A DNA stretch of 64,000 nt. Origin: Bacteroides fragilis (lineage in GTDB: Bacteria; Pseudomonadota; Alphaproteobacteria; Rs-D84). Position 1 is the first letter of the stretch; the number at the start of each line of letters is the position of its first letter. This document shows, piece after piece, positions 28,087 to 48,870 of this stretch. Where the stretch lies: assembly GCA_963630775.1 (NCBI GenBank), contig CAVGNU010000002.1, positions 3,406-67,405 of the forward strand. The letters are read 5' to 3'. The notes beneath the pieces are model-generated. The model was not told where the DNA came from and did no database searches. It saw nothing but the letters and a program-made list of their open reading frames with translations. Position numbers and translations under genes: made by a program.

Positions 28087-28821
28087 ATGATGCGTAAATC
28101 TGCAATAGTTTTGACCGGTATGATGGTGGTGTTGGGGGGATGCGCAAAGCATGACCCAATTTTACCAGGGACGCGCAATGCAATATTTGCAACCAGTGCG
28201 CCCGTTGCACTGAACCAGACCATCGCGGATTTGCCAGCGGTGGCAGTCACGGGTGACGCAGACGCAAATTGTCCATATACCCAAGACGCATCGAACGTAA
28301 TCAAAAATGGCGACCGCAAAATATTCAGCGGATTTCCAACACCAAATTCTGTGCGCAGTGATATGAAACCCATATGCAGCGGGAAATACGTTTATGCGGG
28401 TCTGACCACGGGCGAGGTTATCAAGGTTGACACCAAAACCCGTAACATTGCGTGGATTGCGGACGTCTTTCGCCCCAGCAATATGACCGGTGGCGCATCG
28501 GTTGTTGACATTGTCGCGCCAATTATGCTGCATAACGGCACGGTTTATGCCGGCGGGTTGGGCGATGCATTCTGTGCAATAAATGCGACATCAGGCGCCA
28601 AGAAATGGTGTGCATATATCGGTACGGCGCACCCATTTGTTATCACGGATACGGCGGCGTTTGTTGTTGGGACGGACGATAATCTGTATGCGGTTCGTAT
28701 GCGCGATGGTGCAATTTACTGGCGCGCCGCGGTGGACACGCAATCCGCACCGACATATGCCGATGGCACGATTATCGTTGGTCGGCAAAAATTTGACGCC
28801 GCCACAGGACAGACAAAATAA
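28087..28821 (+). CDS. PQQ-like beta-propeller lipoprotein, short BamB-like
   Basis: Lipobox VVLGGC. Repeated V/IYAG...G.L.A....G...W blades. Only 244 aa. Confidence 0.5.
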   Translation: MMRKSAIVLTGMMVVLGGCAKHDPILPGTRNAIFATSAPVALNQTIADLPAVAVTGDADANCPYTQDASNVIKNGDRKIFSGFPTPNSVRSDMKPICSGKYVYAGLTTGEVIKVDTKTRNIAWIADVFRPSNMTGGASVVDIVAPIMLHNGTVYAGGLGDAFCAINATSGAKKWCAYIGTAHPFVITDTAAFVVGTDDNLYAVRMRDGAIYWRAAVDTQSAPTYADGTIIVGRQKFDAATGQTK

Positions 28822-38173: not shown

Positions 38174-38181
38174 ACATCCAA

Positions 38182-39087
38182 TTACACACGCCATGGGCGT
38201 ACATACTTGGTTAAACGCACTTTTAATATCGGTAATATGCCAAACAAGTAATATTTTTCTGTTGTTCGTGCCGCATTTACGCGTACGATGATTACCGGCA
38301 AAATGCCAAATAACTTATACCGCACAAGCGAAAGCTTATCACCACCACGTTGTAAATCATTTTGCGTCAGGCACGAAAACACGTCGCGCTTTGCATGACG
38401 CCAATCAGAATCACGTTGTGACTTTGTGCTTTTTGTGGTCAACATAGACCCATTTCTGAATTTATAAACATATCGCGCGCCTGGCACGCACACCAGACGC
38501 GCCGCCGTAATCACCATTTGCGTCATTGGTAACATATCTTCGCAATATTTAATATCGCGCGGGAAACTAAATTTGTTTTTTAACCAAAATCTACGCGATA
38601 TCAAATAACGCCACGAGTATCCGTGCATATCAACATGCGTTATATCTAACTTGTCTTGGGGGTGCATCAAAACCAATTCTGTGTCAAATAATACACTGTT
38701 TTCTGGATAACGTTCGTTTATGTATTCTGAAACAGCAACATCTGCATTGGTACGCGCGCATGCATCATATAACCTGTGGTAAAAAGACGTATTTATACAG
38801 TCGTCCGCATCCATAAAATGAATATAATCGCCACGCGCAACCACAATCGCGTCATTTCGTGATACGGCCGGCCCCATATTTACATCATGTGTGATTACGC
38901 GAATATTCATATGCGGGTGCTGTTTGATAAAATCATTTATAAGTTCATCGGTGTTATCTGTGCAGCCATCCAACACAATTACAGTTTCTATTTCTGATAC
39001 ATCAAAATCTTGTGTTTGTATGTTCGTCAATGCCTGTACAATATATTTTTCACAATTGTACGCCGGTATTATCACAGATATTTTCAT
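38182..39087 (-). CDS. Family 2 glycosyltransferase (LPS/LOS or capsule type)
   Basis: MKISVIIPAYNCEKYI...DGCTD...MDADD. Visibly AT-richer than its neighbours. Duplicated C-terminal LFGILP(V/I)..VR tail. ATG 39087 has an AGGGAAA SD. Confidence 0.85.
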   Translation of the reverse strand: MKISVIIPAYNCEKYIVQALTNIQTQDFDVSEIETVIVLDGCTDNTDELINDFIKQHPHMNIRVITHDVNMGPAVSRNDAIVVARGDYIHFMDADDCINTSFYHRLYDACARTNADVAVSEYINERYPENSVLFDTELVLMHPQDKLDITHVDMHGYSWRYLISRRFWLKNKFSFPRDIKYCEDMLPMTQMVITAARLVCVPGARYVYKFRNGSMLTTKSTKSQRDSDWRHAKRDVFSCLTQNDLQRGGDKLSLVRYKLFGILPVIIVRVNAARTTEKYYLFGILPILKVRLTKYVRPWRV

Positions 39088-39105
39088 TATATTTCCCTTT
39101 TTGCT

Positions 39106-39314
39106 GGACAAAAATAAACCGCCAAGGGAAATTGGCGGTCGGGGTCTTAGAACAAGCACTCACAAATGCCCCCGCGCGATTTTGGTAAAACCTGTTGTAT
39201 ATCACACGGAACCCCGACCAATGGGTCTGGGTTAAAATAACGGCGCAAACGCACCGCATACGGATTACGACGCACCTGCGCCGTGTGATGCGGGGATGTT
39301 CTAAGTCCCGAACC
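39106..39314 (-). ncRNA. Candidate structured RNA (riboswitch-like leader or sRNA) ending in an intrinsic terminator
   Basis: Nested helices: 39137-53/39298-314, 39170-75/39290-95 and 39201-06/39284-89. Two internal hairpins (39241-83, 39211-34). Then ccgccaa-tttccc-ttggcgg plus a T-run, 20 nt before the GT2 ATG. Confidence 0.5.
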
Positions 39315-39414
39315 TACAATCCCTTGCAGATTCATTCAAATGATAACTGATTACAACTGAAAAATAAAGATTAAATTTGCTTTCATAAAAAAACGAGGCA
39401 AATGCCCCGTTTTT

Positions 39415-40062
39415 TTATTTATTTGGAATAATTTTAATTTCAACACGTCTGTTCTGTTGACGCCCCGCTGCATCGGAATTTGACGCGATTGGATTGGACG
39501 GGCCCATGCCCAGAATCTCGAAACGCGATGCCTTGACGCCCTGACCTTGCAGATACGCCGCAACCGCGTTTGCACGATTACGCGACAAGGTCTGATTGTA
39601 ATCCGCACTGCCCGTGCTGTCGGTATAGCCCGACACCATGACAGTTGAATTGCTGTATTTATTCAAAACTTTGGCCACAGAATTCAATGTTGCATAGAAT
39701 CCCGCATTGATATCCGCCGAATCTGTTTGGAACGTGATATTGCCCGGCATCACCAAACGAATACTGTCATTGTCGCGAACAACACTAACGCCGGTTGATG
39801 CCAATTCTTGGCGTAATTCGGCCTCTTGCACGTCCAGATAGTAACCAACGCCACCACCAACGGCCGCGCCTGCCAGTCCGCCGACCAATGCGCCCTTGCC
39901 ACGATTACCCGATACCAGTGCGCCGGTCGCCGCACCCGTTGCCGCGCCGATTGCGGTGCCCCATACGGCCTTGGATGTTTGTGATTCGCCGGTGTATGGG
40001 TTGGTGGTGGTGCACCCCGCTAAAATTGCCGCCATGGCAGCAAAAACTGTAAATTTTTTCAT
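39415..40062 (-). CDS. OmpA-family lipoprotein with a glycine-zipper region
   Basis: Lipobox ILAGCT. GxxxG-rich segment (GTAIGAATGAATGALVSG...GGLAGAAVGGGVG). C-terminal OmpA domain (VSGYTDSTGSADYNQTLS...NRRVEIKI). Confidence 0.85.
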   Translation of the reverse strand: MKKFTVFAAMAAILAGCTTTNPYTGESQTSKAVWGTAIGAATGAATGALVSGNRGKGALVGGLAGAAVGGGVGYYLDVQEAELRQELASTGVSVVRDNDSIRLVMPGNITFQTDSADINAGFYATLNSVAKVLNKYSNSTVMVSGYTDSTGSADYNQTLSRNRANAVAAYLQGQGVKASRFEILGMGPSNPIASNSDAAGRQQNRRVEIKIIPNK

Positions 40063-48601: not shown

Positions 48602-48630
48602 TTGCAAATCGGAAAAGATTCTTTTATAAT
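48602..48630 (+). promoter_or_regulatory. Sigma70-like promoter
   Basis: TTGCAA-17 nt-TATAAT. Confidence 0.55.
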
Positions 48631-48636
48631 CGCACT

Positions 48637-48720
48637 GTCATGGCGTGTTGCCGTGATGGGGTCTGATAACCCGTTTTGTGCGTCGGAATAAGATCCAAGT
48701 GCGCGCGGGCGCATTTTTTA
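48637..48720 (+). ncRNA. Candidate small RNA or first leader module (about 85 nt)
   Basis: Begins just downstream of the promoter. Two short hairpins (catggc..gccgtg, ggg..ccc), then terminator tgcgc-gcgg-gcgca plus T6. Confidence 0.4.
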
Positions 48721-48738
48721 TTACGACGAAAAATATAA

Positions 48739-48842
48739 CTCCTGAACCAACTGGTCAGGAGGGTTGCGAATATACTGAATAAGCACACAATTCACAAAAT
48801 TGTTATCAGCCTCCTGACCACCAAATAACTTGGTGGTTTTTT
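48739..48842 (+). promoter_or_regulatory. Terminator/antiterminator-type attenuator upstream of the Cys-rich small protein gene
   Basis: ggtcaggagg (48753-62) can pair with upstream ctcctgaacc (48739-48) or with downstream cctcctgacc (48810-19). The downstream segment overlaps the terminator stem ccaccaa/ttggtgg plus T6 (48818-42). Confidence 0.45.
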
Positions 48843-48870
48843 CGTACGAAAAACAACAGGGGGTAAAACA

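Follow-up and report, generated by a model that had tools for sequence, protein, structure and literature searches.

What is encoded in the gap between an OmpA-family lipoprotein gene and a family-2 glycosyltransferase (GT2) gene on the minus strand of contig CAVGNU010000002.1 (assembly GCA_963630775.1, GTDB order Rs-D84 of the Alphaproteobacteria)? The stretch of DNA analyzed here, 64,000 nt long and called the window below, had been described in an earlier note as carrying at this place a structured RNA of about 200 nt with its own terminator; the two flanking genes are as stated there. In this gap we find a member of a family of folded RNAs, with a predicted length of ~225 nt and a 3' end 19 nt before the GT2 start codon. 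With moderate confidence, we read it as the leader of the GT2 gene and as one copy of a multi-copy, cis-acting family that would switch genes by transcription termination.

A conserved folded RNA on the minus strand

On the minus strand, positions 39106–39320 fold with an energy of −87 kcal/mol (z −4.3), and none of 200 shuffled sequences folds as well. The plus strand of the same interval is equally foldable (z −5.3), so that energy alone cannot pick the strand.

Relatives were collected by BLAST against fetched loci (numbered with an L below), giving alignments A1 and A2, by a covariance model (R1), and by a pattern scan. BLAST recovered diverged full-length relatives at other positions, R1 added more, one of them a second copy in the window, and the pattern scan contributed 25 metagenome contigs and one IMG/VR contig with a terminase. 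After removal of duplicates, the family has at least 39 distinct members. They come from gut Alphaproteobacteria resembling 'Candidatus Enterousia' and from gut metagenomes of humans and animals, and one is located on a phage contig. The end sequence of the leader has no other copy anywhere in the 64-kb window, and nucleotide similarity searches of the element against plasmid and phage collections gave nothing useful. Weaker matches of the covariance model at 28806, 14874, and 18563 in the window were discarded as ordinary terminators.

Covariation, the check proposed in the earlier note, was evaluated in an alignment of 30 distinct sequences (A4). In the fold common to the family, 90.1% of the cells are paired, compared with 81.0 ± 0.5% when partners are shuffled and 35–54% when they are slid, and the observed score was not attained in any of 500 shuffles. 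Compensatory changes on both sides occur in 30 of the 58 pairs overall and in 13 of the 16 pairs of P1b and P1c, two segments of the long closing helix P1. The strands of P1 fit their own partner only, with −23.7 kcal/mol for cognate and −13.5 kcal/mol for non-cognate combinations. The alignment contains 172 G·U cells and only 35 A·C cells, which identifies the strand that folds as the one with the sense of the gene downstream. Folding energy and covariation together bear out the structured RNA claimed for the minus strand: the structure is real, conserved, and specific to the transcribed strand.

The leader RNA is also the most constrained sequence in its neighbourhood. Between the window and loci L003, L006, and L069, it is 97–98% identical over 228 nt, compared with 89–91% for the ompA coding sequence, 88–89% for the GT2 coding sequence, and 84–89% for the promoter spacer.

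Architecture of the leader

Nearly all members have the same minimum-energy architecture, consisting of P1a (GGGG:CCCC), the variable P1b and P1c, a four-way junction, and a terminator that abuts P1a. A variable long hairpin (HP1), a short one formed by segments b and c (HP2), and a third (HP3) are arranged on P1 to form the four-way junction, a conserved multi-helix junction with invariant unpaired bases. In each copy, these parts are preceded by a sigma-70-type promoter and a 5'-terminal hairpin, P0.

Much of this fold had been seen before. The closing helix is real and corresponds to inverted repeat I1 (ggttcgggacttagaac / gttctaagaccccgacc; 24-nt arms, 79% complementary); like the hairpins cggcgca...tgcgccg and aacccagacc..ggtcggggtt and the terminator before the GT2 gene, it is present in the window and retained by covariation in the 30 relatives. 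The nested helices ccccgc/gcgggg and atcaca/tgtgat fared differently, being 49.7% paired across the alignment against 48.9 ± 1.0% in shuffled controls, which amounts to no comparative support. In their place the family retains P1c (GCAUCACA:UGUGAGUGC) and HP3 (CCGUGUGAU:AUCGCGCGG). For the window copy, the family fold costs about 1 kcal/mol (−97.7 to −98.1 kcal/mol, compared with a minimum of −99.0 kcal/mol).

P0 (helix 1) is 96.7% paired, with both-side changes in three pairs and a conserved U·G wobble, and has the family form GAAUCCAA-GNRA-UUGGGUUC. HP2 (helix 6) is 96% paired across the alignment, helices 7 and 8 of HP3 are 91–93% paired with both-side changes in 7 of 10 pairs, and the terminator (helix 9) is 98.6% paired with compensatory changes in two pairs. 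The internal loop of HP3 reads UAUACAACA / AAAAU in the window and UUAUAAAACA / GAAAA in most members. CsrA had been considered as a ligand of the GGGA loop of P0; in many members this loop is GAGA, AAAA, or AUGA.

A structured RNA does lie at the site proposed earlier, but it begins further upstream, since P0 and the −10 element precede the start then assumed (coordinates in Table 1). The promoter motifs place the likely transcription start of the GT2 leader at ~39334–39332. Among 33 members, 23 have a −10 element that matches at five or more of six positions and lies 6–8 nt before P0, and 21 have a −35 element that matches at four or more of six; the −35 element of the window is weak, and its counterpart elsewhere in the family reads TTGACA, TTGCAA, or TTGATT. 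At the other end, 27 of 32 members have a Shine–Dalgarno (SD) sequence and ATG no more than 31 nt after the terminator (median 19), too close for a second promoter to fit in between. No conserved start codon of a leader peptide is found at or after the transcription start, and variation proceeds by compensatory pairs, not by codons. The only Pfam match of the open reading frames that overlap the element, to DUF6538, was taken as chance, being below threshold (E 0.005, 16.9 bits compared with a cut-off of 27).

Two mutually exclusive folds

In the family fold, denoted state 1, segment c is paired with b. The same segment can instead pair with a third one, d, which defines state 2. Segments c (GGUCGGGG..) and d (..CCCCGACC) are complementary at 9 of 9 positions in all 39 members, and this complementarity spans at least seven sequence variants, for example GGCAGGGGG/CCUCCUGCC, GGUUGGAGG/CCUCCAACC, and GGUCAGGAGG/CCUCCUGACC. 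In every member c:d is stronger than b:c (−16.9 versus −13.4 kcal/mol), and in divergent subtypes it extends over d bases that are unpaired in the family fold.

Three overlapping pairings are thus conserved, b:c, c:d, and that of d with the terminator. At the sequence level, the GACC of d forms the first four nucleotides of the terminator stem and also lies inside c:d, so that formation of c:d would shorten the terminator from 9 to 5 bp. The overlap between terminator and closing strand, previously given as 2 nt, is accordingly 4 nt. State 2 would further include the local hairpins GGGCU:AGCCC (89% paired) and AAUCA:UGAUU (77%), which are weakly kept; the helices found only in state 2 score above their controls. 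The 5' strand of P1 (39284–39309) also contains a local alternative hairpin, GGGA...UCCC (P1alt).

An architecture scan that used no family sequence looked for a terminator, a 9-mer over its 5' arm, and a complement of this 9-mer 40–115 nt upstream with an adjacent decoy. It returned 60 hits, with shifted registers of one terminator counted separately, against none in the reversed control. Apart from a few A/T-rich chance hits, these are the known members and two new ones (L023 and L060); the second copy in the window was independently recovered in this way.

A candidate termination switch

These observations suggest how the element might work: the leader probably controls whether RNA polymerase continues into the gene. 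RNA synthesis would start at the sigma-70-type promoter and yield a transcript beginning with the protective hairpin P0. In state 1, the presumed OFF default, a P1 helix of 25–30 bp would enclose the four-way junction of HP1, HP2, and HP3; c would be held by its decoy b, and d would pair in part with the 5' GGGG and in part within the terminator stem, so that the terminator forms and an RNA of ~225 nt is released. In state 2, the ON state, c would pair with the entire d to give the three-way-junction fold known as sRNA-Xcc1, a small RNA (sRNA) family discussed below. The GACC would then be withdrawn from the terminator, reducing its stem from 9 to 5 bp, and RNA polymerase would enter the gene. 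The terminator state is thermodynamically favoured; the default should therefore be termination, with read-through needing help. We infer that termination is regulated, and the balance could be tipped by a protein, a small ligand, or transcription kinetics, for which the conserved internal loop of HP3 together with the junction would be the likely recognition site. Once terminated, the RNA of ~225 nt could well build up in the cell like an sRNA.

The layout has much in common with terminator/antiterminator leaders, such as 'ON' riboswitches, in which the 3' strand of P1 also belongs to a terminator, and classical 1:2/2:3/3:4 attenuators. Like these, the leader is promoter-proximal, has three conserved overlapping pairings and a conserved multi-helix junction, and its alternative helix takes four of the nine terminator base pairs. 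It differs from them in having no leader peptide, functionally incoherent downstream genes, and an unusually long closing helix (25–30 bp) that would lock the OFF state. The earlier proposal of a transcription-attenuating riboswitch therefore holds as far as the attenuating layout is concerned (promoter, terminator near SD and ATG, exclusive pairings), but the downstream genes have no common function that could be linked to a ligand. With strong covariation and a clear expression platform, the family represents a well-defined orphan switch candidate. A leader repeated in front of many envelope and secreted-protein genes would constitute a major, so far unseen regulatory layer, and the genes under its control would be those facing the host or a partner cell.

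Several points weigh against a termination switch. The start site, termination, and read-through are predictions from the sequence. With nearest-neighbour energies, state 2 of the full RNA is less stable by 10–24 kcal/mol (mean 14.7), and it is still less stable by 3–23 kcal/mol (mean 9.5) before the 3' arm of the terminator exists; a gap of this size would require a strong helper or kinetic control. The evidence for c:d is partly circular, given that the pattern by which 25 loci were collected fixed c and d and that the covariance model rewarded c:d pairs; its independent support consists of a few divergent subtypes and the architecture scan. Hairpin P3 of the alternative fold is weak (77% paired). 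The downstream genes have no one common function, which is unusual for a metabolite riboswitch. Finally, the terminator could be constantly leaky, with the structure serving stability or insulation.

Relationship to sRNA-Xcc1

At curated Rfam thresholds, only two tRNAs are found in the whole window. In agreement with the earlier note, the element thus matches no known family at threshold; its 3' half, however, is a sub-threshold relative of sRNA-Xcc1 (RF02221). With relaxed thresholds, positions 39219–39129 align with this family end to end (E 1e-4; score in Table 1). Eight of ten other members score 38.4–51.0 bits, every copy remaining below the gathering score of 53, whereas a bona fide Xcc1 copy of Escherichia coli scores 79.6 bits. 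The alignment includes the conserved A-rich internal loop of Xcc1 (AAUACAAUA), which is matched by AUAUACAACA in the window, and UAUAAAA is nearly invariant in A4. By sequence and predicted fold, the family is a distant, larger relative of sRNA-Xcc1.

sRNA-Xcc1 is a discrete RNA of ~88–100 nt in Xanthomonas (PMC2996969), and for E. coli O157:H7 a species of 89 nt is reported, covered by 40,293 reads but hardly by ribosomes (PMC5331693). It is located upstream of symE in the commonest integron cassette of Xanthomonas, upstream of an ORF6N gene in APSE phages, and in tandem within an island of Xylella; prophages of E. coli and Hamiltonella contain it as well. The two RNAs have in common a closing helix of 9–10 bp (c:d in the leader) around a hairpin with an AUACAA-type loop and a second small hairpin, as well as a position just upstream of diverse accessory genes. 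In contrast to the RF02221 model, the leader comprises ~225 nt with an additional 5' hairpin, the long P1, and the decoy segment, and its intrinsic terminator overlaps the closing helix. The setting differs as well, the leader being located in the chromosome of a reduced-genome gut alphaproteobacterium, mostly in front of envelope and secreted-protein genes, whereas sRNA-Xcc1 has been described as a trans-acting sRNA and not as a leader.

A prophage region of E. coli (NZ_CP009050; L107, 533–3282) contains isrK, C4, a Rha gene, and two identical units of promoter, leader, Xcc1, and ORF6N gene. Each leader has 255 nt, with a TTGACA/TATATT promoter, a 5' domain, the Xcc1 copy, and the ORF6N start ~40 nt later. 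As in the leader family, the 5' domain behind this promoter is able to base-pair with the Xcc1 3' strand. The motif CUACUUG in the second Xcc1 hairpin (P3) is complementary to CAAGUAG upstream and to CAAGUAGGA at the SD of ORF6N, which suggests a C4-like control in these prophage leaders. What has been published as the 'sRNA' Xcc1 thus resembles the 3' part of a leader built on the same general plan. An identity of Xcc1 with the AgvB/AsxR anti-sRNAs of enterohaemorrhagic E. coli prophages was considered and dropped; the paper on AgvB/AsxR draws no link.

In annotations of the past 15 years, sRNA-Xcc1 figures as an sRNA that acts in trans and belongs to phages, integrons, and pathogens of plants and animals; our analysis suggests that it makes up the 3' domain of a larger switch acting in cis. 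A broader proposal can be made only tentatively: the sRNA-Xcc1 fold may act as sensor in a new class of RNA switches that respond to a small ligand or a dedicated protein, with dozens of copies forming a regulon in Rs-D84 and with the Xcc1 RNAs of phages and integrons in other Proteobacteria as terminated or processed leaders of such switches. As part of the same tentative proposal, this regulon would consist of outer-membrane, surface-lipoprotein, glycosyltransferase, and secreted-protein genes in genomes of less than 1 Mb with few regulators.

Alternative explanations

A gene for an independent trans-acting sRNA, present in many copies, with a terminator that defines the product and only incidental read-through, appears unlikely to us, although a dual role could be imagined. 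The element does have its own promoter and a strong terminator, its relative sRNA-Xcc1 is a discrete species in Xanthomonas and E. coli O157:H7, and the terminator hairpin, U tail, and A-rich loops would suit Hfq-type binding. However, the genes behind the element lack space for a promoter of their own, and the leader stays with orthologous GT2 genes (window, L022, and L033) while the sequence of P1 drifts. Variability is highest in the paired strands of P1 and not in a single-stranded seed, and the Xcc1 copies of E. coli too lie behind a promoter and ~40 nt upstream of ORF6N genes. The '6S-like' sRNA once suggested for this locus is not supported: the element is multi-copy and tied to a downstream gene, has a four-way junction in place of a bubble, and has no 6S match even at E ≤ 10, whereas 6S RNA is a single-copy rod of ~185 nt. 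Less probable again is a module for processive antitermination or insulation like the put RNA of HK022 or EAR of Bacillus, which would modify its own polymerase or block read-through from upstream. Such a role would be in line with a structure that extends from the transcription start and invariably has a terminator and then a gene behind it, with copies that are often directly behind the terminator of a co-directional gene (ompA in the window), and with the many envelope and polysaccharide genes downstream, a gene class for which antitermination is known. It leaves the mutual complementarity of b, c, and d unexplained, and no similarity to put or EAR was found in the Rfam scans.

We regard C4-like antisense control, in which loops of a processed RNA would pair with an upstream precursor site and a downstream ribosome-binding site, as very improbable for this family. 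C4 RNA is located in immI of phages P1 and P7 (Citron and Schuster 1990) and is a substrate of RNase P (Hartmann et al. 1995). Resemblance to C4 comprises the promoter-proximal position, the long closing helix, two inner hairpins, a variable 3' strand complementary to an upstream 5' strand, and the co-location of C4 and Xcc1 in prophages, where the E. coli copies stand behind isrK and C4 and carry the CUACUUG matches described above. The leader, however, has no Rfam C4 match and no cognate target at the downstream ribosome-binding site of the Enterousia-type family, which led us to reject such a target. Within the 70 nt downstream, the 3' strand of P1 pairs equally well with its own sequence and with those of other members (−14.6 and −14.0 kcal/mol), as does the 5' strand (−13.2 and −13.0 kcal/mol), and the longest exact match is 5.3 nt for own and 5.5 nt for other sequences. 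The least probable explanation is a repeat acting at the DNA level, such as a miniature transposable element, a REP/ERIC/Correia-like palindrome, or an integron-type site, with the hairpins as a by-product. The Correia elements of Neisseria and the ERIC elements of enterobacteria are multi-copy sequences located in front of genes; they fold into long hairpins and may contain promoters. A repeat would account for the good folding of both strands, for ends that form an inverted repeat, and for a leader–GT2 block that some close relatives have between ompA and rlmN and others lack; moreover, sRNA-Xcc1 was first described in an integron cassette. Against it, copies within one genome are highly diverged yet remain complementary through compensatory changes, the G·U excess indicates strand-specific RNA pairing, near copies are found neither in the 64 kb nor in the plasmid and phage collections, and all copies keep a set orientation and spacing relative to a promoter and a start codon. 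The leader has no terminal repeats of conserved sequence, unlike Correia and ERIC elements. The strand-specific G·U pairs and the fixed promoter and start-codon geometry led us to rule out the miniature transposable element and integron attC readings.

Table 1 Features of the GT2 leader, its neighbours, and the second copy in the window
Feature	Position	Strand	Remarks
Putative −35 element TTTATT	39363–39368	−	Weak, 3/6; 17 nt upstream of −10
Putative −10 element TATCAT	39340–39345	−	6 nt before first base of P0
P0, 5'-terminal hairpin GAAUCUGCAA-GGGA-UUGUAGGUUC	39310–39333	−	10 bp, GNRA-type loop
P1, 5' strand: P1a GGG, P1b ACUUAGAAC, P1c GCAUCACA	39284–39309	−	
HP1 ACGGCGCAGG...GCGCCGU, then UAUUUU	39240–39284	−	Sequence and length variable; helix base 88% paired
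Segment b AACCCAGACC	39224–39233	−	Imperfect 'decoy' partner of c; b:c forms HP2
Segment c GGUCGGGGUU	39210–39219	−	Pairs with b (state 1) or would pair with d (state 2, closing helix of the Xcc1-like fold)
HP3	39172–39209	−	Conserved A-rich asymmetric internal loop; common to sRNA-Xcc1
3' strands of P1c (UGUGAGUGC) and P1b (GUUCUAAG)	39146–39164	−	Local hairpin P3 in the alternative fold
Segment d ACCCCGACC	39137–39145	−	CCC(C) pairs with 5' GGG (P1a) and GACC starts the terminator stem, or all 9 nt pair with c
Intrinsic terminator GACCGCCAA-UUUCCC-UUGGCGGUU, then UAUUUUU	39110–39140	−	Stem 39140–39117 and T-run TATTTTT
Stretch aligned to sRNA-Xcc1 (RF02221)	39129–39219	−	36.6 bits, cut-off 53
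SD AGGGA (39098–39094) and GT2 gene (ATG 39087)	38182–39098	−	Gene behind the leader
GT2 family-2 glycosyltransferase	38182–39087	−	
OmpA-family lipoprotein with glycine zipper	39415–40062	−	
Second, strongly diverged member	48602–48843	+	Covariance model 21.6 bits, E 0.0013, ~48674–48843
Second copy, −35 TTGCAA	48602–48607	+	Near-consensus promoter, 17-nt spacing
Second copy, −10 TATAAT	48625–48630	+	
Second copy, segment b CUCCUGAACC	48739–48748	+	
Second copy, segment c GGUCAGGAGG	48753–48762	+	
Second copy, segment d CCUCCUGACC	48810–48819	+	
Second copy, terminator	48816–48842	+	
SD and ATG (48871) after second copy	to 48873	+	114-residue Cys-rich secreted protein

Downstream genes and the second copy in the window

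GT2 glycosyltransferases stand behind 5 of the 39 distinct leaders, including that of the window, L022, and the second copy of L033. Other leaders precede genes for outer-membrane β-barrels, a Pmp-repeat protein, surface lipoproteins, a TRL lipoprotein, small Cys-rich secreted proteins, a few small cytoplasmic proteins, a small helix-turn-helix protein, and many unknowns. According to a crude rule, 15 of 32 downstream proteins have a signal-peptide-like N-terminus. Genes of such diversity argue against the sensing of a small metabolite, and the mix fits a global signal for envelope and accessory genes, or a protein factor, better than a metabolite.

The two copies in the window have their architecture in common and little sequence. 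In the second copy, segments b, c, and d are altered together relative to the GT2 leader (Table 1). Proteins similar to the Cys-rich one encoded behind it are found behind leaders in L029 and L017.

A member on a phage contig (L106, IMG/VR UViG_3300029906_000277, 3849–5422, minus strand) adjoins a large terminase gene and heads three small genes without assigned function.

The ompA–rlmN locus

'Candidatus Enterousia' and its relatives (order Rs-D84) are uncultured gut bacteria with genomes mostly below 1 Mb (PMC12306168). To judge from its OmpA protein, the window belongs to uncultured gut Alphaproteobacteria of this type. In the window, the GT2 gene has a GC content of 0.38–0.42, compared with ~0.47 in its surroundings. 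Loci L003, L006, and L069 have the element at the equivalent place, with leader and GT2 gene between ompA and rlmN, and in L005, L009, and L012 ompA directly adjoins rlmN. Presence and absence of the leader–GT2 block (~38174–39384) among relatives thus indicate an insertion or deletion at a variable spot. The genes ompA and rlmN are convergent, and the gap between them (38174–39384 in the window) measures ~320 bp in L004 and 630–700 bp in L007, L010, and L011, which are other close relatives. L013 has a GT2 homologue ~118 nt after ompA with no recognizable leader (4645–4763), while its leader copy (2444–2655) heads a different gene, for a 271-residue lipoprotein; the pairing of leader and gene is therefore not absolute.

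Further features of the leader and its surroundings

The tetranucleotide RCCA directly follows the closing helix c:d in 16 of the 39 members, and A occupies its fourth position in 24 of 39 (GCCA at 39136–39133 in the window). Its resemblance to a tRNA acceptor end, and with it to C4, is offered as a lead only, as the terminator stem also constrains three of the four positions.

In most members, HP1 contains repeated half-sites of the kind CGGUGC-GAAA-GCAUCG ... CGGUG-UUUUU-GCACCG (L088, 1546–1603; 39240–39284 in the window). These could fold into a single long hairpin or into two hairpins in tandem, and behind them is a short run rich in U. HP1 is marked as terminator-like by the terminator scan. 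It may hold a second, internal alternative pairing.

Directly after ompA, at 39385–39418, a near-perfect palindrome (AAAAAAACGAGGCAAAUGCCCCGUUUUUUU) forms a bidirectional terminator. It explains most of the weak Rfam matches in the region, among them STnc370 and Leu_leader.

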